This document shows positions 1 to 31,225 of a DNA stretch of 35,142 nucleotides, piece after piece. Under the pieces are notes generated by a model that was given only the letters and a program-made list of their open reading frames with translations, was not told the origin of the DNA and ran no database searches. The stretch is taken from positions 1 to 35,142 of the IMG/VR virus record IMGVR_UViG_3300032320_001130. One strand, given 5' to 3'. The DNA comes from a virus. Its lineage: Duplodnaviria > Caudoviricetes. The translations under genes were made by a program, and so were the position numbers. Numbering within the stretch: the first letter of the stretch is position 1; each line of letters starts with the position of its first letter.

Positions 1-3000
1 CTGCATAATAGAATCCATTTGCATAAATTACACTATTCAATTGATCCGGTGCTATACTAATTGGGCTAGTATCAAAACTAGCATCATCAAATGCAGCCGT
101 GTCAAATAGTACAGGATTACCAGTTGTTATCCAATTTTGTGCATCAAAGCTAACTATCATTGGATTAGCTTTTGTTTTAGTAGTAACTACGTATTGATCG
201 TTAAAATATGATATTCCAGTAACATTCAATACTACATCGGCAATCTTATAGTTTTGCCATGTTATCCCATCATTACTAATTAACACAAATGAATGATCGG
301 CTGAATCTCCTATGGCTATATAACGATTACCATCATTTAATATAGCCTTGATATTAGAATCACGTGGATAAAACGGTTGATCCTTCAATTCAAAATCTAA
401 CGGTAATTCATCGTCAGGGCTAAAAGTATTACCATAGTACGTATTATTAGGATATGATATACCTTTAACTAATTGTTGCAAATCTTTAGGTGGCATATTA
501 ATTGCCGGCTCATAGTATGCAACAATTCTATCAAGTGCATTCAATAATCTGTCATCGCTTTCAAGTTCTACCCATTTAGATTTTATAAATGTTCTATCAT
601 TATTACTTTCAATACAACGCCAAACTTTGTTATCATAAGTAACAATGGACGTTGAGTCATATTTAAAACTCATACCATAATATATTGGCTCAGGAGCATA
701 TGCAAAATCACTGGCTCCACCTTCATATATAAATTCAGAATATCTAACTGGAATTCTCATTGAAATATCTTTGTATACTTCTGCTTGTGACTCGTTAATT
801 GGATTCAAATAGTAAAGATTGAATACTCCAACTGCGGAACCAGAGATTCTAGCATATTGAATGCCACCGGGTTGAAGACCGTCGACTGCATCAGTATAAT
901 CAATGTTAATGATAGCATCATTTTTTCCAGTGACACCTCCCAAACTTGCACCCGGAACAACAATAGTATCATTGGCTCTATAAATAGAACCTGTATCTAG
1001 AATTTTAATGAAGTAATTATTTGCCAATCTACCAGGATTAAATCTAGGTCTATATATTTCAATCTTGGCCCCACCAGCACCAGTGTCATCATATACATAC
1101 GGTGGAATTACACGATAGAAATATATGCTTATGCCTCTTAGTTGACCGGGTTTAATTATAGTTGGTGAATAATCTAGTTCTACAACAGCATTATTTGATG
1201 AGTTAACTACACCTGTTATTGGCAATACTGCACCTTGAAAACTAGCCAAATGTGCATCAATAGCAAGCCCTGACGTACTAAAAGTTTTAATTACACCCGT
1301 GTTTACTGGTGTACCTGTTACTGTACATGTATCTACTTTACCATTTGATGATATGCTAGTAACTCTAATAGTTAAATTGTTAGCAGGGGTAGTACCGTTA
1401 AATCTACTGCCATCCATGTAAATCAAATCGTTAACTTGATACCCTGTTCCATAATAGAAAGGATCAATAATTGCAGTATATGTAGAACCGTTAGATGTGA
1501 TATTGAATCTAGCATTAACTCCACTACCATTGGTGCTATCTTGTAACTGACGCACATATGTTCTTTCAATTGATGTTACTGTAATTACGCAATCATTAGT
1601 TGTATTGGCCCCGGCTAATCTAGAACCTAATATTCTAATAACATCATTCTGTCTATATGCCGCACCTACAGTTGTCATTGTAACTGAATAGTTACCACCC
1701 AATAATACATTATTGATAGTAAACTTGGCATCGGTAGAACCACTTAAACTTGCGGCAGCAGTCATGTTAGTATAAGACCTGCTATAGTATAATAATGACA
1801 TATTACTTGAACTCTTGTCATTATTTGTTCTACTATAAGGACTTGACCAAAATTCATCAGGCTTCCATGCTTGAATCTTTGGAACGTAGCTTGTTCTATC
1901 AAAACGCAATGTATTTTGAATTCCTCTAACTAAACTGTTACTTGTTATAGGTATAGCACGTGCAGTAAGTTCCATTCTATACTCAGTAGTTACAGAAACT
2001 ACTGGTGGTTTGAATATCATTTTATCAGTACCACGAATACTGTTAGCACGTGTTTTATGTAAAGTAATTGATATTATTTCTTCTTCTTCTACTTTAGCTA
2101 CAACATATACATAATAGTAACCGTTTTTTATTGAACCATTATTTGTAGATAATGCGGTAACTCTTATTAAATCACCGGTTTCAAAGAAAGTCGTAGGGAC
2201 TAAAACCGTATTGTTAATATAGTTAATTCTAGTGTCAGTAAAGTCAACTGAATAACTACCTGAAATTATAATCTGCGGAGATACTGGATAATTCTCACCT
2301 GGGTCTACTACTTTAACACCTATTACTTTATCTCCTGCCATGATAGGCAATAGATTTGCTTCACGGGTAGGTGCTGGATATAAATCAGTATCAACATATG
2401 CAGTTACTGTTGGAGGGTCAATATAATTACGTCCGGTATCTAATACCACAACACCCGGTAGATCCATATATATTACTGCGCCTGGATAATGCTCGGTCAC
2501 ACTTGAATTGTATAATCCTCGTATCACACCCGATACTACACCTGTTTCTCTATCTACACCGGCGTATCCAATCAACTCATCGTCAACTTTCATTATACCT
2601 TGAATTGGAATTCCTCTAGCATTATCTAACTTTAATAAGTTACTAGTGGTTTTCATATAGTTTGCTAATACAGCAACTGATGAATTTGGGACTGACTCTA
2701 ATTTTAAACCATAATGATTAAACCAGTTTTGATATTCAGTGTTTTGCCAAATAGTATCAGTAAATAAAAATTCATTGTTAACTGTGCTAATGTCAGAGAA
2801 CTTTAATTTAGGAGTTTCAAATCTATCAATACTAGCATTATACTTAGGAGGTAAATCAAAGTCAGTTATATCTCCTGTATAAGGATCTAATCCATTATAC
2901 TTGAATCCAAATTCTTTAATAATACTGTGATATGGTTTAACTTCATTGACAAAACCACTAATCAAGTTTTCATTGTCACGCTGATATTTCTTTTCTTGCT

Positions 3001-6000
3001 CTAGGTTACGCACTGTATATACTACATCTGCAAAACTAGTTTTGTTTAACCATGGCAAGTAGTTATGAGCATCTGTGTTTTCACTTTGAATATACTCAAA
3101 CATCAATATCAAACTCTTATTTCTATACTCTAGTAAAGGACCTGTATAGATTTGTTCGTTCAATGCTCTGATAATATTTCTAGTTTCAGTTGAAGGATAT
3201 GAATCATATGATACTGTATCATAGAAGTTATCACCAAAACCAATCTTATTAGTTTGATAATCCCATAACGTATCTAAGAACTTGATTGTACCATCTTGTA
3301 AGCCAACTCTAATCCAAGCACTATCTGTATATGAATATACTTCTCGTTTATCCTGACCGTTCTTAGCAACACCTACCAATAAGCCTTCTTTAGGAGTTAA
3401 TCTTAATAAATCAGGATATGATGCTACTTCTATTGCAGTCTTAGACTTATCGCTATATCCCTCTGCCCACCAATATATGTGTGTCCAGTAATCTCTAGTA
3501 TTATGATAATCACCGTATTCAGTTAAGAATGTTAAATTACCAAATTCACTTATAGTGTATTTTGCCAATATGCTATTAGCATATGCCAAATAATTTTTCA
3601 AAGCATTAAATCTATTGATGAAGAAGCCTTGTCTTGGGCGTACATTGACACCTATTTGCAAATAGCTAGGTAAATTAATATTAGGTACAGTGGCACCAGT
3701 TTCGTCTACGCCTGACAAACTATCTAAGAATCTATCATATAAACTTTCAGGATATGTGTAGCCACGTAGTTTATTAACAAAGCCTGGTAAAAAGTCTTCC
3801 GGATAGTTACTTCTTATCAATTTGTATTCATTATGTGTTTCTACTTCCCCGGAACCAGTACTAAATCCAATGTGCATATTTGTATTCAGACCGTTGATAT
3901 ATTCACGGCTATTATACAACGCAAATGTGTCTGGTTTTAATGGAGCAAAATAACTTATACCTGAACTTTGTGGGTTAGAAATATATTGTTCAATAACACT
4001 ATCAGTTAATGTTTTAGTTCCGTATAACGTGTTGGTTTTTCTTACCCAGAAATAATATCTAGGTACTAAGCTATTATTTGAATTGATAGCGAAAGTAACT
4101 GTATAACGTTCTAAATCATATGGGGTGCCGACACCTGTGTAGAATGCCGGAGTAACATCACTTTCAATCCATGTGTATACTGCTACAGTACTTCCCGGGA
4201 ATACATTACCCCAATGTTTAGCATTATACACTAAATCATCTTGATGATAATTCATAAACTTGACAGTACTAATATCAAACCATAATTTACCAACTTGAGT
4301 GTTACTCCAAACTATACTGCCATTTACAATAGCAGGATTATTATAGCCTGCAGGATCTACTACAGATATAAAATCTAAATTTTCTGCTACAACACCCAAT
4401 AATTTACCACGCAATGGGTCAAAATAATCTAACGAATCTAAATTACTATCATCTATGTTAGAATACAATTGAATGCGTTTAATTTTATCAACATCTACTA
4501 TAGGGCTAGATTTTCTATGTGCTGACCAATTTGGTTTCTTCGCATCATTAACATAAATTACTGCTCTTCCGCCCACGTTATCAGCCTTAAAGTTAGGACT
4601 ACCAACCATAACTACATAATCATTAAATGCAATTGCTGAACCATATAATGGTTTTTTACCATAGTCAGACTCTAAATCGTTTAATGATTGAGCATAGATA
4701 TATTGTCCAGTGTTCAATAGACTTTCAGCATATGGCTTCACATAATCATACATGTATACAGCACCTGCCTCAGTGAACTCATCTTCAAACTTAGTTAAAT
4801 GATTATCAAATACAGTATCGTTGTGTGAATAGTCATCATCGCTAAAGTCAAATTTGGTGCTTACAAATCGTGAACCAAAAGGTGCAGATACAATAAAGCT
4901 ATTAAACTCATTAAATTTTACTAAATGTCCAAACCCAGTGCTATTTTGCTGATGTGGGTTTCTGATAACCTGTGTCTTTGTATACGGAGCGATCCCCATT
5001 AGATAGTAATAAGTACCATTGAATACTTGCAGTGATATTTTGTTATTGTCAGGGAATAGATTCATATCACGCAATCTGATAACCAATCTATTATCTTCGG
5101 TTACATATGCAAACACGTTAGTTATTGTTGCAATATTAATAGCATCCGCAATATCATATGCATCACCGTTTGGAATAGGTACACTATATCCGTTAATTAA
5201 CAAATAAGTTGCACCTAATACGTTATTGGCTGCGATAAATGCGGTGACTCTGCCAAATCGTTTACCTTCATTAGTATAACGATATACTGCACCTTCTTGA
5301 CCTGCTGGGGCAGATGGGATAGCGCCTTCTCTGGCTGTTGCAGTAGTTATTCCACTACGGTCATACGGTGCACCAACAATCAATTCACTGCCTGTGCTGT
5401 TACATGATACACTTGTACCAAATTGTTGTCCTGCTATTACTCCATTCCAACCTTCATAGCTTGCCAATTGTTGTTCTAATACAAAATTTACACTGCTTAA
5501 TGATACAATATCACCTGCTTTAACGCGCGGGCCAATTAATACTAGATTCAATATAATTATGTACTTACTCTTTTCAATTCGTACACCATTGATATATAGT
5601 TGACTTCCACGACCAGGACTCCATGGTAAGTATAATGCATAAAATGAGAACGGCGGACTATCATATTGCACGGTCCATGTTTCAACTAATCGTGAATGTA
5701 CGTATACGTATCCAACGTCAGCAATTACCGGTAATTCAGGATTAGCTGACCATCTAAAGTTAGCCTTAGGGGCGCCTACAAATAGTTTTGTTCCATCATA
5801 TGTAGTTGCAATACTATAACCGTACTTGTCTCCAACTTGGCTAAATGTACCTGCATTAATCAAATTCAATATTGAAAAATTATTGTTTACAGTACGTATG
5901 TAAGTATCCATTACTTGTGTAGAGCCGACTGTAAATAACACAGTTGGTGCAATATTATAACCAATACGTTCAACAGTATGAATAGTAGTCGCATCTGTAC

Positions 6001-9000
6001 CACTATCATATTCGGCTGTTATCACAGTTACATACTTTAATAATGCTGCCGGTGTATATACTTTGATTGCATTAGAATTATTATTAGTAAATGAAGTAGT
6101 ATTCAATGAATCTAAATATGTAAACAAATCGACATAGATATAGGCATTGATAGGTGTGAAGAACTTAGAATTTCCGCCGGTATATAATGTGTTTCCACCA
6201 AGCAAGTACGGATCAGAATTTTGCCCAATAGAATTAATTTTATAATCAGCAGGATCACTATCCGCAGAGAATGTTATTGATGTATCATTGGGTATATACC
6301 CGTTACATAACAAATAGTATTTTCTATGATTGTTCAAAAAATCTATTAAATTTTGATTAGTTAATCCTAAACCTACTCCAGTAGAATATGCACTCTCAGC
6401 AGATGCTTGTTTAACTATAACAGTTACACTATCACCTAAGGTTAATGCATTGTTGAATACAATTTCAGCTCCGCCCGCTAATAACGGGGTCAGTGTATAA
6501 GTAGATGAACTTTGAGTTACTGTATTAATCTTAACATCAATTACAGACTTACTATTAGGAACAAATGTTAAGACAAACGATTTAGTAGAATAATTTGATA
6601 CTGTGAAATAGTTTCCTTGAGGAATATAACCAAACTCCATTACATATGAAGTTTTATATTGTGAATACTTATAAAAGGTTACACGTCTGCCGGGCTTAAA
6701 TGCAGCCGCAGTTAGTCCTGTAACATGGTTACCTTTAACTACAAACTGTTTATCTAATGGAGTTGTTGTGTTTTTTAATACAATACCTGTAAATGTGTTT
6801 ACTAAATCAACATCACGTTGAAATGCAATGATACTGTTAAAATTAATAGCACTTAGGTATAAGAAGTTACTGTCTCCACTGAACGCCATACTAGTACCAA
6901 TATCAGATTGACCAACGGTTATAACCTGTTCTTCAACTAATGCTTCAACCTCAGGCATTTGTACAATACGATACACATATATTTGAGTGCTAGAATTGCC
7001 CGGACTTGATACAACCATAAACTCATCATTACGTGCAATAGTTTTGCCAAATGGCGCAGTTTTAGTAATAGTGTTTCTTAATAAGAACCCACCATTGGCT
7101 GCTTTGATATATTGATATAGTTTTCCAGCGCCTGGATCGCCGACAAAATATCCTAACTTAGGAATATATGCAACACTTGTGCCAAATGTTTCGTTATTCA
7201 AACTTCTAGGATTAGCATTATTAAACTTCGAAAGTTCATAGTTCAATGTTTTACGGTACACAACCCAGTCGTTGTTTACATCTTTATCAATCCATACTGT
7301 ATTCTTATTGTATTCACTATCCATTAATGGTAGTTCTAATAATTTTGTAGGGCTAGACAATCGCTGACTTTGTAATTTAAACACCATACCAGTGCCAGAT
7401 GGAGTTATTAAGTTGATAGTGTTTACTATTGCTAAATCTACAATAATAGTTTTACTATTGCCTATGGCTGACACAACATAATATCCGTCTACTCTATAAT
7501 CGTAATTAATAATACCAATTGCATCATATTTTGATAAATTGTGCGGTCTGTTAAAAGTTATGGTGACTGTATCATTTAGATTATTAAGAACTGTTGTTAT
7601 TGTAGCTCCCAAAGATACAGGGGTATATACATTCCAATCCCCTTGTTTATCAGCAATCCATATATAATCATTAGCGTATACATAACCTACTGTATTCTTA
7701 TCTAAGCGTTCTATCGTGTATCCTGTTAATGATACATCATCTAAATTTACATATCCACTATTAGGCATTGCTATCAACGGATCATTAGTAACAACGGGCA
7801 TTACATTAGTATTGTTTAATATTCTTCCATAGTTTACTAAACTGTGTAATGGTACTTGTTGGTGAGCGCCCGTCACCGCTACTCCATTAGTAATACCAAC
7901 TATAGCTGGGTTACCTGTCATCATTGTTTCATTTAGGGTGAACTCTATAAAATTGTGATTTAATACTCCACCATACTCTGCTGATTTAATAGCCCAGTTT
8001 TCATAGATATCATATTCTAAAGTATGGTTCTGTAATTCAATTCCTTGTAGTATGTCTAGACCGTCTCTAGTACCTTTACTACCAATCATATTTTTATAAA
8101 CACCAATTTGTGAACTATCGTTCAAATTAGCATCAGCTAGATAATTGCGTGGTCTATACCCAATCAATGAGAACCCTAATATGTCTCCATCGCTTTCTAG
8201 ATTTCCTCTAAACTCATCATAGTACAACATTGATTCGTATGCTCTAGTACTAGGATTAGGTAATAATCCCTCATGTATGTTATTATAATTTGTTTTTAAC
8301 CAATAGTTATAATTAAAGGTAGTACTAGGAGCAATGGTTAATTCATTAGCCATCCAATATTCACGTTTGAATCTTACTATCGTTCCCTTATTATATTTTA
8401 CATTAGGTGTCCAATCTAAAACATTATTCTCATTTAGAATAAATCCAGGTGCAGTTATGGTGCCGTCCCAATCACTAGTTTTAGTACCTCTAACATATAA
8501 TCGTTGTTGACGTAATCCCGTAGTTAAGTTAAAAATCACATCATTAAATACGGTTTCATTATCAAACACTACTACATGTTCTGTATTGCTTAAATCCAAT
8601 TGAGCATAATTGATACTATCACCCTCAATCAATACCTTAACGTCAAAGTCATTGTCTTTTCTAAGAATAGACAAATCTTTTATTTGTATTGGTAATGAAT
8701 TTTGATTCAATATAAAATTATCACGTGCGTATGACAATGATTGCACTACGTAATTTTGTTTAGTGATAGTTAAGTTATTAGCACATGGATTTAGATTGAT
8801 AGAGCTTCCTACTTCCCAACCAGATTGATTCCAATATAAGAATTCGACTATCATTTGCTTCCAATTCAATTCAGTAGAATTTTCTACATCCATGAATTTT
8901 AATCCTTGTGTCTCTAAATATTTTCCATAATTGTTTACAAAAATAGATAGTGATTGTTCGCTAGTAAATTCGTGACCATACTCTAGTATTCTAACTTCAG

Positions 9001-12000
9001 TTGTAAAATCTGAAGGTAATTGTATTGTCGTTGAACCCATACTGACTTCAGTATAACTACCACTGGAGATAGGTACTAGATATTTGAAGTATGCTTTGTT
9101 TTGACTATTTCCGTATACTCTAAAACCATTATCAGTTTTTTGCACAATAACGCTACTATATATGATAGTATCGTCAGGTTCATTTCTATATAGTAATATG
9201 TCATAACTATCATCAGGTATCAATAAACTATTATTCTTGCTGTTTGGAGAACCCTTTTCAACATAGAAATTCAATTGATTCTTATCACTGTACCCGGCAA
9301 GTTTATATACCAATCTAACATCCAAACTAGATAACAATGAATTCAGTATAGTGCTGCCTTCAAGTCCATATTGTTGCAGATAATCTACCATCCAATTTAA
9401 GTAACTATGTGATGCAGTTGTAGCATCAGTGCCGTATAATGTTACAATGTCAGTAGTAGTTCTACTTCTATTATTAGCCAAATATTGTTTGAATTCTGTG
9501 TTATACTTGTATGTGTCTAAATTCAATCCCAAAGAGAAGAACATTGCAGGTTTAGTTAATGCAAATAATCGCATTAAATCAAAAGGCCATGTGCTACTTT
9601 TTAGATAAGCATACTCAGCCGGGCCAACATCTCCTATCTTCCAATCTTCTTTGAAAGAACGTTGATTATAATTGTTAACTACTGAAGTAAACGGGCTTAA
9701 CAAATTACCATGCTTATCTACTGGTATAATTTTAGATAGTTCTGGTCTAACTCGTTTAGTATTAATGTACGGGTCTCCGTCATTCCAAACAAAACCTTTA
9801 CTTAAATCATCCCATAATAAATCATTGGTACTAGTATAAGGAGCATTACCATAACGACTAGCCCACCAATTTGGTTTGTTAGGTAAACCTAACATTTCCC
9901 ACGGTGTGAGATGAGGTGATACTGTATCATATAACCAAAGATATATTGATCTCCAGCTTCCTCGATTGAATGGTAAATTATCTAACTTATTAGTAGCTTT
10001 AGTGTAATTCCATGTATACTCATCAGTACCATCATAATACTGTTGTTTAAATTCTATACGATTTAATCCTGCCCAATTCAAGAACATTGTATTATACAAT
10101 GTCATAAATTCTTCACGTGAATATTCTGTTTGTCTAAAGTACCCACCAATAATATCATCTTGCTCAATAGGAATCTTAGCGTTTACTTTAATATTGTTAT
10201 AGATTCTCATTTCAAACTCATACAACACTTTATCTCTAAAATCTTGCAAGAATCCATCATTATATTCTCCGTACAATCTAGTCAATGAACCGTCATGTCC
10301 TTTTAACATAAATGTAGGTTGTAGATAAGTATCATCTAAAATAATATCAGGTATATATGTTGGATATAATCCTAATTTTGTAGGTGTGTTAGGAACAAAA
10401 CTTCCGTATGTTTGGTTATACTCTTTAACTGTGACTACATCATTTTCGACCAACTTAGTCATTACCAACAAATAAGGATCAGTTTCAGAAAGAACATAAT
10501 CTACATTTCTTATCATTTGTATGACTTGGTTTATGCCATTTTTAAACCTAGATACATAAACTAATACCCCATTATAATTTGCATTTGAAAAGTCGTATGT
10601 TTTAGTTAAAGGATAAACTGTATCACCAATCCCTACTTTGAAAGTGTATGTGTTGGTAACATATGCTGTTTTACTAGGTAGCATGTCACTCCAAAAGAAA
10701 GGATTACTTTCACTTTTGGTACTTGATATAATATCTAATGCATCATCCAGCATATCAGAACCTGATTGGTAAGGAGTATAGTTTTCTCCGTTAACAGTAG
10801 ATACTAGTAATGACTTAAATTTTACATATTCGGTAGCGTTGTATGAAACACTATTAAAGAAATTATAACTTTGCTTTCTTATAATAGCAGCCGGGGTAGG
10901 TAATGAAGCACTGTTTTGAACGATTCTCATTCCGTATGGCACTACGTTTCCTAAGTCTCTATAATTGTTTGCGCCGAAAGCGGCACCGGTTAAGTTAGGT
11001 ACATTATTGCATATACTTTTGAAATGTCCGCGTATATCGCCCGAATTTATAAGAGATATTTGTGAGTTGAATGGGTTATGATCCAAGTTACTAGGTATTT
11101 GATAATAACCGGTTGAACTAACCTGATCGCTATATATCATAATATCAACAGTAACACCGTTGGTCAATGTATCATTTATTTGAATTATAGTTGTATTTGC
11201 AGTAGTGCTTACGGTATAACCAGAAGTATCTATTCTGTTATTATCTACATACACAATGATAGTAGGCCATTTTGTAGTAGATGAATCTTTTGCCGCAATA
11301 TCGCAAACAAATGTTTGATTACTGATTACTGCATCATTGTATAACAAATTAAATATTTGATATTGAAAACTTTTCTCTACGGCTGTTTCCCAACCAATCT
11401 TACGTTTGTAAGAATCTTTGGTTATAAATTGATGAACATAACCAGTATTCACCGGTTGATTAATTGATAATCCATCATACACATAGTTAAAAGTTGCACT
11501 ATTTAGTGAAACGTCAAACACGATATCACTTATATTTCCTACACCACTATATCGAATAGGGAATTTTAATACAGTATCATCTACTCCTGAACTTTCTGCA
11601 TATTGAAACAGTGTACAACCAGTGAAGTCCGTACCTGGATAATATTCCAAATTGCTAAAACTTATACCATTACTATCAAAAATATCAAACAACGGTGGTT
11701 GATTAATTCTTTCTTTTCTTTGGGCACTGATCCACTTATCTCCGTCAAAATATAAACTATATCCGCTGTTACTAGTACCTTTAGTAATAATGATTTGATC
11801 CAGATAGTCTACATCACCGTCGACCGCTTTACTCAAAGTAACAATTCGTTGACCGTTAACTAATGCTACGGTAGCTACATATATTTTATTTCTAACTTCT
11901 ATATTATTGTCTTTAGCAAATACAATTCTTGCGCCATCATATAATAATGAGTCAGCACCGTCTGGATGATAATTTGTATTTCCACCTGATATAATTGATA

Positions 12001-13798
12001 ATGCATCAGTTGTTGTATTATCTAAATAATCAACTGGCATTTTACCAGTACTACCAGAATTTAATAATTTTAAATCTGGATAAAACTCAATAATAGGTCT
12101 TTTTGCTCTGCTATCTAAACTAGTTAGTGCTTTATTGGCTATAGGACTTCTAGTGTTATTTGCTACTATAGTGTTTAATACGTCAACATGGAACCACCGA
12201 TTACTACGACTCCATGCATTTCTATCTATACTACTACGGTTAATAGTAATATAATCTTGTTCATATGGTACTTGACTTGAGCCACCAAAAGATTGTTGGT
12301 CATATGATACTTCATCGAACGGAGAATTAAATGATTGACTAAATGGTTCAGGTACTATAAGGTCGCTGACCGGAACTAGTGTTATTTTTGTTCCAACACC
12401 CTCAACATAATACAAATCATTTAAATATTTTTCAGGATACACTCTACCAGTGAATCGAACTTTTAGTCCATTAGAGAATTTAATTCCATTTGGGCTAATA
12501 TAAGTACTGCTACCCAAAATATCTTCAACATTTAATAACGCATCAACTGAATTATCAACTATCTTAATTTTTCCAAATTTAAACTTACTACTAGTACCTT
12601 GATAATATAATGTATCTAATCTAGCTGTAATATTTGGAATCAATATCATTTCACCTAGACTATTTTTAATAAAACTTCTAGTAATATATTCTTTTCCATA
12701 TTGGATATTCAGTTTAGTATCATCTGGGATAGCATGTAACTGTTTGAGCCTAACAACTGAGTCATCACCAATCAACTCAATACGATAAACGTTACTGTTA
12801 ACATTAGTATAGAATCCACCTTCAAGTCCACCATCTTGTGTATCAGTATTAAAATTGGCAGAATCATACAAATTACCGATATATCCTCTATCAGTAGGAC
12901 TTGAACCATAAAAGATTAATGTTTTACCATTGATACCCAATACGCCATCAATACCTTTGATAGTACTTAACGGTTTACCGTGCAAATTATCAAATGATAA
13001 AGTTGTAACTAAATCTACATCAATACTTTCTGCAAAATTATAATCATCTTGTGCATTCGTCAAGGGTACATCAAATGCTATTACTTTAGATGTACTACCG
13101 CTTGATCCTCTATACTCGACTCCAGCAATATCACGTGTACTGACATTAGTCCTAGATACATCTACTCCATTTACTCCTGGTTGAGTTTGGATGTAAAAAT
13201 CATCATCGGCTCCTACATTAAACAAATAACTTCCACCACGAACTAATGTTAGTGTTGGATTACTTATTTCTAATGGAACATTGTTTACTGATATATCATA
13301 CGTGCTACCACTAGATGATACTATATCAAACGTAGCGTTTACTAATAATGTTTCTGTTGTGATTTCTACTGCTTCTGGTCCTTCTGGTACCCAATAATAT
13401 TGACTAAAATTAATTAATTTATCTAGGTCAGTAAAGCTATCCCAAGAATAAAATTCGTTGCTAAAAAGTTTGTTATGATTTAAGGTAATGCCACCTTCTA
13501 ACTCTAGTGCATCTATAATACCTGGGTAAGTTAACAAATCAACAGCAGTAGTGGTATCTTTCTTTTTGAAAATTACGGCAGGTTCTAACTGATAATTGGT
13601 TCTTATAGTAGAAGTTTCTGTTAGATAGTTATCCTTACTATTAACTCCGTAACCAAATTTACTACCAATAAAACCTTGTATCTTATCAAAATTAGGAGGC
13701 TGAACTAGTTGATCGAGGGTGGCATTTAAAAACTGTTCGTTGGGTTTGGTTTTAAAAATGTCCGGTAAAAACTCAATTGTTCTAATTCTTGTTGCCAT
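1..13798 (-). CDS. Giant virion structural protein (gp7-like baseplate wedge/fibre fusion), more than 4,599 aa, 3'-partial
   Basis: ATG at 13798 (MATRIRTIEFLPDIFKTKPNEQFLNATLDQLV...). The same frame is open at spot checks near 9893 (TPWEMLG), 5369 (LIVGAPYD), 2933 (EVKPYH) and 2-110 (FDTAAFDDASFD...YANGFYYA). No minus-strand ORF is listed here, consistent with no stop before the window edge. Lies directly downstream of gp6 and contains FG-GAP, Gly-rich and Asp-box-like repeats. Confidence 0.85.
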   Translation of the reverse strand, partial: MATRIRTIEFLPDIFKTKPNEQFLNATLDQLVQPPNFDKIQGFIGSKFGYGVNSKDNYLTETSTIRTNYQLEPAVIFKKKDTTTAVDLLTYPGIIDALELEGGITLNHNKLFSNEFYSWDSFTDLDKLINFSQYYWVPEGPEAVEITTETLLVNATFDIVSSSGSTYDISVNNVPLEISNPTLTLVRGGSYLFNVGADDDFYIQTQPGVNGVDVSRTNVSTRDIAGVEYRGSSGSTSKVIAFDVPLTNAQDDYNFAESIDVDLVTTLSFDNLHGKPLSTIKGIDGVLGINGKTLIFYGSSPTDRGYIGNLYDSANFNTDTQDGGLEGGFYTNVNSNVYRIELIGDDSVVRLKQLHAIPDDTKLNIQYGKEYITRSFIKNSLGEMILIPNITARLDTLYYQGTSSKFKFGKIKIVDNSVDALLNVEDILGSSTYISPNGIKFSNGLKVRFTGRVYPEKYLNDLYYVEGVGTKITLVPVSDLIVPEPFSQSFNSPFDEVSYDQQSFGGSSQVPYEQDYITINRSSIDRNAWSRSNRWFHVDVLNTIVANNTRSPIANKALTSLDSRAKRPIIEFYPDLKLLNSGSTGKMPVDYLDNTTTDALSIISGGNTNYHPDGADSLLYDGARIVFAKDNNIEVRNKIYVATVALVNGQRIVTLSKAVDGDVDYLDQIIITKGTSNSGYSLYFDGDKWISAQRKERINQPPLFDIFDSNGISFSNLEYYPGTDFTGCTLFQYAESSGVDDTVLKFPIRYSGVGNISDIVFDVSLNSATFNYVYDGLSINQPVNTGYVHQFITKDSYKRKIGWETAVEKSFQYQIFNLLYNDAVISNQTFVCDIAAKDSSTTKWPTIIVYVDNNRIDTSGYTVSTTANTTIIQINDTLTNGVTVDIMIYSDQVSSTGYYQIPSNLDHNPFNSQISLINSGDIRGHFKSICNNVPNLTGAAFGANNYRDLGNVVPYGMRIVQNSASLPTPAAIIRKQSYNFFNSVSYNATEYVKFKSLLVSTVNGENYTPYQSGSDMLDDALDIISSTKSESNPFFWSDMLPSKTAYVTNTYTFKVGIGDTVYPLTKTYDFSNANYNGVLVYVSRFKNGINQVIQMIRNVDYVLSETDPYLLVMTKLVENDVVTVKEYNQTYGSFVPNTPTKLGLYPTYIPDIILDDTYLQPTFMLKGHDGSLTRLYGEYNDGFLQDFRDKVLYEFEMRIYNNIKVNAKIPIEQDDIIGGYFRQTEYSREEFMTLYNTMFLNWAGLNRIEFKQQYYDGTDEYTWNYTKATNKLDNLPFNRGSWRSIYLWLYDTVSPHLTPWEMLGLPNKPNWWASRYGNAPYTSTNDLLWDDLSKGFVWNDGDPYINTKRVRPELSKIIPVDKHGNLLSPFTSVVNNYNQRSFKEDWKIGDVGPAEYAYLKSSTWPFDLMRLFALTKPAMFFSLGLNLDTYKYNTEFKQYLANNRSRTTTDIVTLYGTDATTASHSYLNWMVDYLQQYGLEGSTILNSLLSSLDVRLVYKLAGYSDKNQLNFYVEKGSPNSKNNSLLIPDDSYDILLYRNEPDDTIIYSSVIVQKTDNGFRVYGNSQNKAYFKYLVPISSGSYTEVSMGSTTIQLPSDFTTEVRILEYGHEFTSEQSLSIFVNNYGKYLETQGLKFMDVENSTELNWKQMIVEFLYWNQSGWEVGSSINLNPCANNLTITKQNYVVQSLSYARDNFILNQNSLPIQIKDLSILRKDNDFDVKVLIEGDSINYAQLDLSNTEHVVVFDNETVFNDVIFNLTTGLRQQRLYVRGTKTSDWDGTITAPGFILNENNVLDWTPNVKYNKGTIVRFKREYWMANELTIAPSTTFNYNYWLKTNYNNIHEGLLPNPSTRAYESMLYYDEFRGNLESDGDILGFSLIGYRPRNYLADANLNDSSQIGVYKNMIGSKGTRDGLDILQGIELQNHTLEYDIYENWAIKSAEYGGVLNHNFIEFTLNETMMTGNPAIVGITNGVAVTGAHQQVPLHSLVNYGRILNNTNVMPVVTNDPLIAMPNSGYVNLDDVSLTGYTIERLDKNTVGYVYANDYIWIADKQGDWNVYTPVSLGATITTVLNNLNDTVTITFNRPHNLSKYDAIGIINYDYRVDGYYVVSAIGNSKTIIVDLAIVNTINLITPSGTGMVFKLQSQRLSSPTKLLELPLMDSEYNKNTVWIDKDVNNDWVVYRKTLNYELSKFNNANPRSLNNETFGTSVAYIPKLGYFVGDPGAGKLYQYIKAANGGFLLRNTITKTAPFGKTIARNDEFMVVSSPGNSSTQIYVYRIVQMPEVEALVEEQVITVGQSDIGTSMAFSGDSNFLYLSAINFNSIIAFQRDVDLVNTFTGIVLKNTTTPLDKQFVVKGNHVTGLTAAAFKPGRRVTFYKYSQYKTSYVMEFGYIPQGNYFTVSNYSTKSFVLTFVPNSKSVIDVKINTVTQSSSTYTLTPLLAGGAEIVFNNALTLGDSVTVIVKQASAESAYSTGVGLGLTNQNLIDFLNNHRKYYLLCNGYIPNDTSITFSADSDPADYKINSIGQNSDPYLLGGNTLYTGGNSKFFTPINAYIYVDLFTYLDSLNTTSFTNNNSNAIKVYTPAALLKYVTVITAEYDSGTDATTIHTVERIGYNIAPTVLFTVGSTQVMDTYIRTVNNNFSILNLINAGTFSQVGDKYGYSIATTYDGTKLFVGAPKANFRWSANPELPVIADVGYVYVHSRLVETWTVQYDSPPFSFYALYLPWSPGRGSQLYINGVRIEKSKYIIILNLVLIGPRVKAGDIVSLSSVNFVLEQQLASYEGWNGVIAGQQFGTSVSCNSTGSELIVGAPYDRSGITTATAREGAIPSAPAGQEGAVYRYTNEGKRFGRVTAFIAANNVLGATYLLINGYSVPIPNGDAYDIADAINIATITNVFAYVTEDNRLVIRLRDMNLFPDNNKISLQVFNGTYYYLMGIAPYTKTQVIRNPHQQNSTGFGHLVKFNEFNSFIVSAPFGSRFVSTKFDFSDDDYSHNDTVFDNHLTKFEDEFTEAGAVYMYDYVKPYAESLLNTGQYIYAQSLNDLESDYGKKPLYGSAIAFNDYVVMVGSPNFKADNVGGRAVIYVNDAKKPNWSAHRKSSPIVDVDKIKRIQLYSNIDDSNLDSLDYFDPLRGKLLGVVAENLDFISVVDPAGYNNPAIVNGSIVWSNTQVGKLWFDISTVKFMNYHQDDLVYNAKHWGNVFPGSTVAVYTWIESDVTPAFYTGVGTPYDLERYTVTFAINSNNSLVPRYYFWVRKTNTLYGTKTLTDSVIEQYISNPQSSGISYFAPLKPDTFALYNSREYINGLNTNMHIGFSTGSGEVETHNEYKLIRSNYPEDFLPGFVNKLRGYTYPESLYDRFLDSLSGVDETGATVPNINLPSYLQIGVNVRPRQGFFINRFNALKNYLAYANSILAKYTISEFGNLTFLTEYGDYHNTRDYWTHIYWWAEGYSDKSKTAIEVASYPDLLRLTPKEGLLVGVAKNGQDKREVYSYTDSAWIRVGLQDGTIKFLDTLWDYQTNKIGFGDNFYDTVSYDSYPSTETRNIIRALNEQIYTGPLLEYRNKSLILMFEYIQSENTDAHNYLPWLNKTSFADVVYTVRNLEQEKKYQRDNENLISGFVNEVKPYHSIIKEFGFKYNGLDPYTGDITDFDLPPKYNASIDRFETPKLKFSDISTVNNEFLFTDTIWQNTEYQNWFNHYGLKLESVPNSSVAVLANYMKTTSNLLKLDNARGIPIQGIMKVDDELIGYAGVDRETGVVSGVIRGLYNSSVTEHYPGAVIYMDLPGVVVLDTGRNYIDPPTVTAYVDTDLYPAPTREANLLPIMAGDKVIGVKVVDPGENYPVSPQIIISGSYSVDFTDTRINYINNTVLVPTTFFETGDLIRVTALSTNNGSIKNGYYYVYVVAKVEEEEIISITLHKTRANSIRGTDKMIFKPPVVSVTTEYRMELTARAIPITSNSLVRGIQNTLRFDRTSYVPKIQAWKPDEFWSSPYSRTNNDKSSSNMSLLYYSRSYTNMTAAASLSGSTDAKFTINNVLLGGNYSVTMTTVGAAYRQNDVIRILGSRLAGANTTNDCVITVTSIERTYVRQLQDSTNGSGVNARFNITSNGSTYTAIIDPFYYGTGYQVNDLIYMDGSRFNGTTPANNLTIRVTSISSNGKVDTCTVTGTPVNTGVIKTFSTSGLAIDAHLASFQGAVLPITGVVNSSNNAVVELDYSPTIIKPGQLRGISIYFYRVIPPYVYDDTGAGGAKIEIYRPRFNPGRLANNYFIKILDTGSIYRANDTIVVPGASLGGVTGKNDAIINIDYTDAVDGLQPGGIQYARISGSAVGVFNLYYLNPINESQAEVYKDISMRIPVRYSEFIYEGGASDFAYAPEPIYYGMSFKYDSTSIVTYDNKVWRCIESNNDRTFIKSKWVELESDDRLLNALDRIVAYYEPAINMPPKDLQQLVKGISYPNNTYYGNTFSPDDELPLDFELKDQPFYPRDSNIKAILNDGNRYIAIGDSADHSFVLISNDGITWQNYKIADVVLNVTGISYFNDQYVVTTKTKANPMIVSFDAQNWITTGNPVLFDTAAFDDASFDTSPISIAPDQLNSVIYANGFYYA

Positions 13799-28942: not shown

Positions 28943-29118
28943 TTTGTGTACCAGAATTAAAAGCAAACATTATACACGAATTAGAAAGTAATCTGATACA
29001 GCACGGTACATTAACTACAATAGCTAAAAAATTCAATTGTAGCATTGATTTGATAAGTAGAATACACAAAGATATTAATTTATACAAAGAGGCATTAAAT
29101 GAGTGGGTCAAAAAGTAA
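28942..29118 (+). pseudogene. Start-less reading frame with a helix-turn-helix (probable gene remnant)
   Basis: Manual translation: ICVPELKANIIHELESNLIQHGTLTTIAKKFNCSIDLISRIHKDINLYKEALNEWVKK*. HTH-like IAKKFNCSIDLISRI; no in-frame ATG/GTG/TTG before the HTH in this segment; overlaps the nuclease start. Confidence 0.5.
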
Positions 29119-29674
29119 GAATAAAGGTAACGCATTCGAGCGTGAAGTTGCTAATTTTTTATCTAAAACATACAATGCCTCTTTTGTTAGAGCAGCACAT
29201 AGCGGTGCATTTATAGGTGGAACAAATAATCACCGAAAAGAATATCTAAGTGAGAATCAAGTTAAATCATTCAAAGGTGATATCATACCACCTGATGATT
29301 GGAAACATTTCAATGCCGAAGCGAAAAGTTACGCTGACTTTCCGTTTCACCTATTACTTACAGGTGAATGCAAACAACTTGATTCGTGGCTAGAGCAATT
29401 ACTTGATGTAGAAGATACTGATGATTTAAATATTCTTTTTATGAAATTTAATCGTAAGGGTCAATATGTAGCAGTACAAGGAAAACTAACATGGAAGGCA
29501 GATAACTGTCTTTTCTATAGTAGTGTAAAGTACGGTGATTGGGTCGTAATGGAACATTCTAGCTTTTTCAAAAATAATGCAGAATTAGTAAAACAATATT
29601 CAGGCACAACAACAGACACAAAGTCAAATAATACAGAAACAAAACAATTTTTAGATTTAACAACCGTAGGCTGA
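29099..29674 (+). CDS. PD-(D/E)XK nuclease, Hjc-like Holliday junction resolvase
   Basis: SKNKGNAFEREVANFL...SGAFIGG...GDIIPP...NAEAKSY gives an E...GD...EAK catalytic pattern; follows gp46. Confidence 0.8.
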   Translation: MSGSKSKNKGNAFEREVANFLSKTYNASFVRAAHSGAFIGGTNNHRKEYLSENQVKSFKGDIIPPDDWKHFNAEAKSYADFPFHLLLTGECKQLDSWLEQLLDVEDTDDLNILFMKFNRKGQYVAVQGKLTWKADNCLFYSSVKYGDWVVMEHSSFFKNNAELVKQYSGTTTDTKSNNTETKQFLDLTTVG

Positions 29675-30025
29675 GTTTGTCAGTCCTCCTTGAGTTTGTA
29701 CAGATTGTGCTGTGCTGACGGATCTGGAGTATGCACGTTAGTAATAGCGTGGAACACCGAGAGGGCAATCTACATAGGGAACCCTCAATGAGTCTGTAAT
29801 TAACTCTATCTTGCGATTACAGAACATGCGTTGTCGAAGAACCAAACTATATTTGGTAGCTTCACTACAGTCCCATATAAACTTTACAGGACAACCGGTG
29901 GCGAATAGTAACAGAAAAAGTTAACTAGTCGGGGAATAGATGGCAAAGGATGACAGGCATGGCAAAGTTTTTCCAATGGTAGTGCAATTTTGCACTACCA
30001 TGGCTTCAAAGCGGCAAAGTATTCC
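29668..30025 (+). ncRNA. Candidate large structured non-coding RNA of unknown family (~360 nt)
   Basis: About ten nested stems found by eye, with G-U pairs and a GUAA tetraloop on the plus strand; long-range pairs CACCG/CGGTG and GGAATA/TATTCC; no credible ORF. Confidence 0.6.
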
Positions 30026-30057
30026 AATACAATAAAGTTAAATAAAATCTAAAAGAA

Positions 30058-30118
30058 TACCGAACGTGATACTGAGCAAAGCGAAGTATGAGTGAAGGTA
30101 GATGACCGAAGGTCATCT
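30058..30118 (+). other. Two adjacent hairpins with triloops and tandem G.A mismatches (ssDNA-type; may double as terminator)
   Basis: TACC-GA-AC-GTG-ATACT-GA-GC-AAA-GC-GA-AGTAT-GA-GT-GA-A-GGTA and perfect AGATGACC-GAA-GGTCATCT. Confidence 0.6.
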
Positions 30119-30164
30119 TTAAAGAATAAGGCTACTGTAGTTTATGATAAATGAATAATTACGG

Positions 30165-30395
30165 TTAGAAGAATGGAAGTCCTGACTTCTTAGTAGTTTC
30201 CATATTTTCTTCAATAAGTTTGCTTATTGATTTTCTTTCAGTAACACTCATGTTAAGAATATCTGTATAGCTAGCACCACCTCGCATATACCAAGCCATC
30301 TTCATCGCACCGGATTTAATATCCTCGCACTCACGCTCCAATTGATCTAATAGGCCCTTGATTCCCTCGGAGTCAAGCGAAAGGAGCCTTAACCG
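30165..30395 (-). CDS. Hidden small ORF (gp51-like position), probably the -1 frameshift extension of the gp26-like protein
   Basis: Manual translation: RLRLLSLDSEGIKGLLDQLERECEDIKSGAMKMAWYMRGGASYTDILNMSVTERKSISKLIEENMETTKKSGLPFF*. The frame is open back through the slippery site; internal starts give only 58 aa (TTG 30341) or 46 aa (ATG 30305). Confidence 0.75.
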   Translation of the reverse strand, partial: RLRLLSLDSEGIKGLLDQLERECEDIKSGAMKMAWYMRGGASYTDILNMSVTERKSISKLIEENMETTKKSGLPFF

Positions 30396-30401
30396 AAAAA
30401 A
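30352..30401 (-). promoter_or_regulatory. Programmed -1 ribosomal frameshift signal (U_UUU_UUC plus 3' stem-loop)
   Basis: mRNA reads ACU UUU UUC GGU UAA; heptamer at 30401-30395. 5 nt later a stem-loop AGGCU..CUUGA-C-UCC-GAG-GGA-A-UCAAG-GGCCU (30389-30352). Confidence 0.65.
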
Positions 30402-31225
30402 GTTGTTGCGTTGATAGTAAACTCTTGCTGATATTCGTGACTACAGTGTACACATTTTATATCTAGTGGTTTATTTTCTGTAGATTGGCGCAATTCTACA
30501 TTTACTTGTTTAATGCTTTCAAACGTTTTAGCATCAATATTTCTTAAGAACTCATCAATATATGCTGGGTCAAATACAGTAGCGTTTGGAGTTTTTACAT
30601 ATTCAATTGTTTTTGTAATCAATGTAATAGTCATGTTATTAATAACTTCCAAAGCCCTAGCTGTCTTTTCATTTTTTTGATTAGCATCTTCTTCAGATTC
30701 GATGTTTAACAACATTTTTTGTATTTCAAATTGCATGATACTAGTTTGATTTACTTCTCTGTATGGTAAAGGTTTGAATTTAATAATCAAATCTTCTCCA
30801 ATCTCTAGAGGTTTGTTATAATCACCGGGCTTAAAATTAGCCAAAATACCTGCTAAGTTTACATCATATTTTGCTTCTTCATTACAACTAGGACAACTTG
30901 TTTCAATCTCCATTAAATTACCATTTGTAGCGGCACGTATAGCAACTAGTATAGGATCTAAATCAAGTACTGGAATTTCCCATGGATCTAAAATATTAGG
31001 GGCACAACTTTTGATTACTTCAAATATCGCAATACCGTTATATAATGCATCCGGAGTTCTGCTGGTAATCTCATCAATTGCAGTCATAGGATATATAGGT
31101 ATTTCTCCATTCTCTGGTAAATTAATTGCGTTTTCAGAGTATCCTGAGCCACCTGATGGCAATCTCAGATATAATGCTGGTCTACGAAAATATTGTTGTA
31201 GGGGGTTGCTTGAAATGGGTGCCAT
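30389..31225 (-). CDS. gp26-like baseplate hub / tail assembly chaperone (278 aa)
   Basis: NPLQQYFRRPALYLRLPSGG..Y, IYPMTAIDE, DLDPILVAIRAAT, two CxxC pairs (CPSC, CVHC), terminal FFG; adjacent to the tape measure gene. Confidence 0.75.
   Translation of the reverse strand: MAPISSNPLQQYFRRPALYLRLPSGGSGYSENAINLPENGEIPIYPMTAIDEITSRTPDALYNGIAIFEVIKSCAPNILDPWEIPVLDLDPILVAIRAATNGNLMEIETSCPSCNEEAKYDVNLAGILANFKPGDYNKPLEIGEDLIIKFKPLPYREVNQTSIMQFEIQKMLLNIESEEDANQKNEKTARALEVINNMTITLITKTIEYVKTPNATVFDPAYIDEFLRNIDAKTFESIKQVNVELRQSTENKPLDIKCVHCSHEYQQEFTINATTFFG

Follow-up and report, generated by a model that had tools for sequence, protein, structure and literature searches.

The window analysed here, a stretch of 35,142 nucleotides, comes from a T4-like jumbo phage whose nearest cultured relatives, according to protein searches, are the PA5oct-like phages, phage Phosso and the Rak2-like phages, at approximately 50% identity. 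A plus-strand block composed of gp55, gp47, gp46 and a Holliday-junction resolvase gene faces the minus-strand gene gp26, with portal and tape-like genes farther out (Table 1). A minus-strand open frame of at least 4599 aa (2–13798) runs off the window. The first-pass annotation had described the interval between the resolvase and gp26 as the only long non-coding gap, and had placed a structured RNA in it. The gap does hold the RNA, but its non-coding length is limited to positions 29675–30164 by a conserved minus-strand ORF occupying approximately 30165–30390. The resolvase stop codon falls within hairpin P1 of the RNA. On the opposite side, gp26 itself (30389–31225, minus strand; phrog_150, E 2e-18) has its 3' end at a conserved run of TTTTTTCG, beyond which a gp51-like ORF poor in start codons extends in a different frame (30165–30400, minus strand). 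Between hairpin B and the gp51-like stop, a conserved GATAAATGAATA at 30145–30156, absent in some short gaps, has what we take to be a resemblance to a T4 late promoter. The spacer separating gp46 from the resolvase (28943–29098, 156 nt) exceeds most of those in the window and varies from about 50 to 1100 nt among relatives. The sequence AGACAnnnnGTC (29611–29627) was kept in 64 of 82 relatives while the surrounding resolvase tail varied; considered as a promoter, it was dropped because it lies in frame within this tail (DTKS/DTTS) in 61 of the 64.

Table 1. Features of the resolvase–gp26 gap and of the RNA that it contains.
Feature	Position	Strand	Evidence or remark
Holliday-junction resolvase gene	29099..29674	+	phrog_244, E 1.5e-18; last of the gp55-gp47-gp46 block
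Structured RNA, ~350 nt	29666..30020 (about)	+	ends inferred from conservation
P1 hairpin	29669..29685	+	double changes at 5/6 pairs
P2, CTCC/GGAG stem, invariant UUGA / GA.CU internal loop, variable apex	29686..29729	+	
P3 hairpin, GNRA loop	29734..29751	+	42/82 GNRA; double changes
Core domain, closed by P4 (29755-59/29896-900)	29755..29900	+	
P5 (core domain)	29761-86	+	asymmetric CAA/A loop
P6 (core domain)	29788-827	+	
P7 (core domain)	29830-34/29891-95	+	
P8 (core domain)	29836-63	+	
Pseudoknot 1, P6 loop 29806-29811 with 29938-29943	29806..29943	+	100% paired
Pseudoknot 2, 29871-29874 with 29932-29935	29871..29935	+	97.4% paired; double changes at 3/4 pairs
P9 bulged hairpin	29903..29930	+	double changes at 9/10 pairs
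Repeat 1, AGGC(AT)GGCAAAGT	29955..29968	+	putative RNA strand pairing with the template under repeat 2
P10, near-invariant hairpin between the repeats	29973..30003	+	98% paired
Repeat 2, AAGCGGCAAAGT	30009..30020	+	putative RNA-DNA hybrid site
AT-rich spacer	30026..30058	.	88% AT (77% in relatives); sequence unconserved
Hairpin A, tandem GA/GA mismatches, 3-nt DNA-type loop	30069..30089	+	motif in 61/82 relatives
Hairpin B, 8-bp stem, C(GAA)G loop	30100..30118	+	C(GNA)G loop in 60/82
gp26 baseplate-hub gene and gp51-like ORF below it	30165..31225	-	convergent gap boundary; coding-type conservation

Using resolvase and gp26, 107 loci were collected. The RNA was present behind the resolvase in all 90 loci with a resolvase match, and no RNA match was obtained in the 17 gp26 loci without one. 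Eight of the gp26-only loci were inspected, and in the seven with enough flank the site was filled by other genes. A pattern search based on the 3' stem, with at least 120 loci listed, gave RNA matches adjoining the resolvase and/or gp26 wherever the flank sufficed, the remaining listed matches being chance hairpins. Within the subtype of the window, the resolvase was always upstream of the RNA where the flank reached it. Mean identity to the window was 0.71 for the RNA, compared with 0.39 upstream and 0.37 in the spacer.

The alignment used for covariation contained 41 rows, near-duplicates and three rows with long inserts being left out. RNAalifold returned 72 pairs, with double changes at 47 of them, and two pseudoknots were revealed by an APC-corrected G-test. 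The resulting 85-pair model was 96.2% paired among the 41 relatives, and 57 of its pairs showed double changes; none of 500 shuffles scored as high, and slid controls reached 30–43%. In pseudoknot 1, double changes were seen at five of the six pairs, and a U-G pair in 10 rows. The plus strand folded at −107.2 kcal/mol (z −2.82), with 0 of 100 shuffles as good. As the minus strand also reached z −2.46, the energy cannot fix the strand by itself. The helices of the relatives held 163 G-U cells versus 30 A-C cells, and the P3 loop was of the GNRA type (GTAA, GCAA, GTGA or GCGA) in 42 of 82 sequences and of the GNYA type in 0 of 82. The fold is therefore that of a plus-strand RNA, which the earlier annotation had deduced from G-U pairs and a GNRA loop. 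Covariation among related phages and folding against shuffled controls were two of the checks that it had proposed, and on this comparison of sequences a conserved, multi-domain, doubly pseudoknotted plus-strand RNA can be considered as confirmed.

All the sequences it had named were present in the window, and double changes among the 41 relatives were found in GGCTGA/TCAGTC, the GNRA hairpin (29734–29751), the long-range CACCG/CGGTG, GAGGG/CCCTC, TCTGTAA/TTACAGA and the 29903–29930 stem (CGA..TAAC/GTTA..TCG). GTTGTC/GACAAC survived in the shorter form GTTGT/ACAAC, with double changes, but its sixth pair held in 68%. The proposed CAGAT/ATCTG was paired in 76–93% per pair, and CTCC/GGAG (100% paired) with an internal loop was modelled in its place. 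The ACCAAA/TTTGGT arm turned out to be variable among relatives, and the GGAATA/TATTCC helix was unconserved (41–90% per pair), its bases being used by both pseudoknots. The 11-bp stem, here P10, is real, but with a core that scarcely varies (no variation at all in 7 of its 12 pairs) it gains no independent support from covariation. The core domain carries an invariant ACTACA, and we take the asymmetric loop of P5 to be like a C-loop. Judged by eye, neither a kink-turn in P2 nor an alternative ACTAC/GTAGT switch had support, and both were dropped. A second conserved module, the twin hairpins at 30069–30118, lies beyond position 30025, where the earlier annotation had ended the RNA.

Comparison of the window with Rfam 15, another check proposed at first pass, gave only chance matches at the gathering and E-value thresholds (GOLLD, ROOL, OLE, HEARO, RNase P, group I/II introns and riboswitches included), and ARAGORN reported 0 tRNA or tmRNA genes, in agreement with the initial opinion that the RNA was not recognisable as a tRNA, tmRNA, RNase P, intron or riboswitch. 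A blastn search of the gap against annotated phages returned 10 short chance matches. The 3' stem pattern matched eight times in the GTDB genomes, none of the matches being the RNA; this was one pattern, and diverged cellular copies lie beyond its reach. The word "undescribed" used at first pass holds for the window, without Rfam match, but less so for its relatives. In a sister subtype, the Polynucleobacter-1 motif (Rfam RF01718; Weinberg 2010, PMC2864571) matched the first 135–142 nt of the element in L267 and L279, with 115 and 106 bits, respectively (threshold 37 bits). These were two of 20 loci tested, and both matches lay at the same resolvase–gp26 site. The model did not match the window at E 10, nor 15 further loci of its subtype at E 1. 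It spans the 5' third only, without the pseudoknot core, the repeats or the hairpins. The second known sequence is ncRNA004 of PA5oct, a paralog of the element situated in the PA5oct resolvase–gp26 gap (126 nt at 83%, with an identical 32-nt GA hairpin) and transcribed from the same relative strand (PMC7318152). It measures 619 nt, and the sections of Lood 2020 covered here (PMC7318152) give neither a structure nor a function for it. Because no profile or descriptor match was obtained from the window subtype, its kinship with the window RNA rests on synteny and layout, and ncRNA004 is likely a distant relative.

Hairpin P10 is flanked by two short repeats, which were registered by a symmetric rule in 81 of the 82 non-redundant relatives (L281 was left out). 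Of 729 repeat cells, 538 were identical, 149 differed as G/A or U/C, nine in the reverse sense and 33 otherwise. The repeats thus differ chiefly as G/A, which fits a pairing of RNA repeat 1 with the template under repeat 2: the 149 mismatches are compatible with this direction, the nine with the reverse and the 33 with neither. In that direction, 57 of the 81 repeat pairs were compatible throughout (mean of 30 after permutation of the partners), and in the reverse direction 0 of 81. Cognate repeats scored 8.49 compatible positions out of 9, whereas 1000 permutations of the partners gave 7.89 ± 0.05 and never more than 8.07. On the far side of a 0–3-nt bulge, at position −2, 6.6 of 7 independent pairs agreed (sign test, p 0.016–0.03), and no compensating partner for the variants of this position was seen by eye within the RNA. 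Two repeat positions covaried as "same base" in the Rak2-type copies. For the 5-nt repeat core, a tree-based test did not reach significance (p 0.375). Two inherited consensus positions accounted for 140 of the 149 wobble mismatches, and a longest-common-substring test was marginal (5.63 versus 5.38, with one permutation equal). An asymmetry in duplex energy was discarded as support for the direction of pairing, being explained by composition alone. We infer that the simplest partner of repeat 1 is the template DNA, on the strand complementary to repeat 2. The hybrid predicted in the window consists of 11 Watson-Crick pairs and one rG-dT wobble, interrupted by a 2-nt bulge; the usual predicted hybrid is approximately 9 bp.

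Downstream of repeat 2, the AT-rich spacer, possibly an unwinding element, precedes hairpins A and B. The perfect form of hairpin A was found 1–4 times per whole genome, and perfect hairpins of the GA and C(GNA)G kinds just 6–12 times per genome. Hairpin B contains CCGAAGG (30106–30112), the sequence that forms the mini-hairpin in the ssiA primase signal of RSF1010 (PMC13037366, section 4.2). In DNA, GNA loops have a far higher stability, and they are found at the priming signals of G4 and RSF1010 (PMC13037366). The C(GNA)G loops recall G4 oric as well as ssiA, with the difference that the hairpins lie here behind a large RNA gene in a dsDNA phage and that primase binding is putative; mini-hairpins of this kind also serve N4 promoters. 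Among 30 Rak2-type copies, 25 had DNA-type hairpins downstream on the RNA-like strand and none had them on the other strand. With this occurrence in 25/30 and in 60–61/82 of the closer relatives, the two hairpins are a candidate primosome or helicase signal of the displaced strand, reversed in Phosso. In this phage, an RNase HI gene adjoins a structured gap of 1 kb (L110:5594-6994), and the C(GAA)G hairpin of the gap occupies the opposite strand compared with the other phages.

At many distant resolvase loci, a GC-rich gap of 350–700 nt occupies the same site without a profile match. Visual comparison, together with covariation in 30 Rak2-type copies, indicates that these gaps keep the order of parts seen in the window subtype: a hairpin with the pseudoknot-1 loop, CGT-P7, ACAG-P7'-CCG, pseudoknot 2 and repeat-hairpin-repeat. 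The Rak2 core CGTTGC...ACAGAGCAACC almost matches that of the window subtype. Starting from the window subtype, nhmmer found none of the distant elements, and only two loci, L250 (E 0.012) and L302 (E 0.22), were matched by the covariance model where the element was expected; the Rak2-type copies gave no full-length match. A hand-made descriptor, tuned after those sequences had been seen, matched many distant gaps and three of the four copies in 121Q, with a background of three matches in 2.72 Mb of shuffled sequence and four off-target in 1.36 Mb (approximately one per Mb). It missed PA5oct, Phosso and the L231 group. A search for the repeat-plus-hairpin module returned the element alone in G001 and G002, three of the four copies in 121Q, and nothing in PA5oct, G007 and Vibrio phage 2.275.O, a genome in which no element was detected. 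The case for kinship with the elements of cultured phages is modest: it rests on topology and synteny and is weak by profile.

The number of copies per genome was four in 121Q, five in XaC1 and in each of GAP32, BF, XbC2 and Munch, three in PA5oct and two in G007. The copies were always on one strand, which equalled the majority gene strand in 121Q and PA5oct. Five genomes of the window subtype had one copy, and in two complete genomes of this subtype the single copy was on the minority coding strand. Spacing between copies was more even than random in the GAP32 group, a single lineage (P 0.002–0.005), and borderline in 121Q, XaC1 and G007 (P 0.05–0.07); PA5oct entered this test with two copies. 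The copies occupied like positions across genera. In 121Q, XaC1 and GAP32, endonuclease VII replaces the resolvase and the gap stays, in PA5oct the resolvase is inverted and the gap stays, and the other copies in cultured phages have no nuclease neighbour. Because the neighbour is swapped, inverted or missing in these distant relatives, the RNA is not a partner of the resolvase. In 121Q and XaC1, a TACAATATAGATCCGTCC-like motif, possibly a protein-binding site, recurs in variable stem-loops inside the RNA.

Nine RNA runs carried small shares of the stretch. Contigs of close relatives covered parts of 29565–29982 in seven of the eight RNA runs examined, and several of them spanned the resolvase 3' end into the RNA; such contigs reveal neither ends nor strand nor level, and may stem from DNA carry-over. 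In run X5, the contigs did not cover the RNA. The segment 29998–30450 had no contig in four RNA runs, an observation that was not used because contigs cannot show ends. No fixed sigma-70 promoter was found upstream in the window subtype, where TAnnnT occurred at a single distance in 20 of 80 cases, so that read-through is plausible and the RNA may arise in this way from the gp55-47-46-resolvase block. No antisense promoter was found in a scan of the window. The copies of cultured phages are preceded by their own promoters; ncRNA004 has one of the sigma-70 type, and its annotated end is located approximately 50 nt before the GA hairpin. This transcript accounted for 0.08, 0.03 and 0.02% of the phage reads at the early, middle and late stages (PMC7318152, Table 1), compared with up to 5% for ncRNA001 and ncRNA002 (PMC7318152). 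In the supplements of Lood 2020 that were covered (PMC7318152), no read counts for the gap were found.

We propose that the RNA acts in cis as a primer similar to ColE1 RNA II and marks a replication origin of the phage, with a probability of roughly 0.55. In this model, the transcript adopts the two-pseudoknot core, as the covariation shows, and this fold together with P10 would keep repeat 1 single-stranded. RNA polymerase would then pass repeat 2, approximately 50–58 nt farther on, where repeat 1 would pair with the template. The hybrid would nucleate a persistent R-loop extending into the AT-rich tract, and the displaced non-template strand would form the two GA/GNA DNA mini-hairpins, loading a helicase or primase. 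Finally, trimming by an RNase would leave a 3' end on the RNA from which a DNA polymerase could extend. In ColE1 RNA II, a G-stretch pairs with a C-stretch. RNA II is a pre-primer with a downstream helicase-loading strand, and the element resembles it as a long folded non-coding transcript with a proposed persistent hybrid on its own template and a displaced strand that would be offered for helicase loading (PMC5043065). As in the ColE1 type, a folded transcript, described by the 85-pair model, lies upstream of the putative start site, and, from the comparison of relatives, an upstream RNA segment appears capable of pairing with the template close to the 3' end. The cultured relatives of the element have host RNA polymerase promoters, a further likeness to ColE1. 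In contrast with ColE1, there is no match in sequence or fold, the element has two pseudoknots, no antisense RNA I was seen, the replicon is a phage and not a plasmid, some lineages have multiple copies per genome, and the function is here a proposal.

Several observations were counted against a primer. The four-fold-site skew showed no switch at the element in any of four genomes; such a switch is not expected for one-way origins or recombination-driven replication. RNase HI (PF00075) was found in one of five genomes. To these are added the short hybrid of about 9 bp, the absence of a detected element in Vibrio phage 2.275.O, the single minority-strand copy in two complete genomes, the lack of a fixed promoter and the reversed hairpin of Phosso. 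The R-loop origins of phage T4, oriF/ori(uvsY) and oriG, combine transcript-primed initiation, a downstream unwinding element and a plurality of origins. To our knowledge, the T4 origin transcripts need no special fold, whereas the window RNA is under strong structural selection. The RNA itself is real, and it would constitute an RNA-primed origin of a new sort if the mechanism holds. The literature consulted, mostly non-subscription papers, yielded no mapped origin for these jumbo phages and no account of the RNA. It was not found in the supplements of Fremin 2023 (PMC10690425) other than files 1, 2 and 4, which were outside the search, nor in the passages covered of a 2026 review on jumbo phages (PMC13282480). 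The extension to a T4-like jumbo superfamily (lake phages, Rak2-like coliphages and PA5oct) with one to five evenly spread origins, each set by a doubly pseudoknotted RNA docked on its template via a slipped repeat and with DNA mini-hairpins taking over the displaced strand, is tentative, and we give it slightly less than an even chance. If true, a folded primer RNA would be described for the first time from a dsDNA phage, together with a multi-origin replication plan in a virus. The reading would name the origins of jumbo phages, give a function to Polynucleobacter-1 and to ncRNA004 of PA5oct, and extend the ColE1 primer-RNA principle to large multi-origin viruses.

A trans-acting ornate RNA, serving as a scaffold or RNP in the manner of GOLLD, ROOL and OLE, with the repeats as twin protein-binding or oligomerisation motifs, would account for the size, the two pseudoknots, the GNRA loops and the many invariant unpaired bases, and would suit the RNA-library contigs over 29565–29966 in seven of the eight runs examined. 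Those RNAs, as far as the descriptions covered here go, are also large, pseudoknotted and phage-borne; the window RNA is shorter, has no Rfam match and possesses end repeats and DNA-type hairpins. We consider this reading unlikely, as the repeats covary across a bulge of variable length, which suits pairing better than a protein site, DNA-type hairpins accompany the copies (25/30 of the Rak2 type), and spread copies on the same strand favour a function in cis. Another argument against it is the level of ncRNA004, which makes up at most 0.08% of the phage reads, whereas ncRNA001 and ncRNA002 reach up to 5% (PMC7318152). Even if the origin reading fails, the family is, judging from its alignment, a large pseudoknotted RNA with strong covariation, and it remains a good target for structure determination.

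The spread of copies along one strand, provided with promoters of their own in cultured phages, and the conserved site adjoining the resolvase and gp46/47 would also be compatible with another role of the RNA or R-loop in cis, such as an antiterminator, a start for recombination or packaging, or a genome-organising anchor. HK022 put is an RNA antiterminator that modifies RNA polymerase. This possibility appears quite unlikely to us: the conserved copy is directed into the convergent gp51/gp26, the remaining copies have no nuclease neighbour, and antitermination leaves repeat 2 and the DNA-type hairpins unexplained. It is very improbable that the element folds as single-stranded DNA, as an origin of the sso/ssi kind with incidental transcription. 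G-T wobbles are possible in DNA too and the downstream hairpins are of the DNA type, but the 42 GNRA loops against 0 GNYA, the two pseudoknots, the promoters before the cultured copies and the annotation of ncRNA004 by RNA-seq (PMC7318152) all argue for RNA. A selfish element (intron or mobile RNA), or an RNA that guides the adjacent nuclease or serves as its scaffold, which the multiple copies in cultured phages and the position right behind a nuclease gene might suggest, is scarcely credible given that no gene is split around the RNA, no Rfam intron or ribozyme matches, the site is fixed across deep divergence with copy positions alike across genera, and the adjacent nuclease is swapped, inverted or missing, with no obligate link to one nuclease family.

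In several public records, the tiny hypothetical ORFs drawn over the element, as in L108 (6151-6963), K64-1 (L397) and Yen9-04 (H101), are probably spurious. In PA5oct, an unannotated third copy is located in the terminal repeat, at 12.8–13.7 kb (L393:5811-6721), and has a near-consensus sigma-70 promoter.
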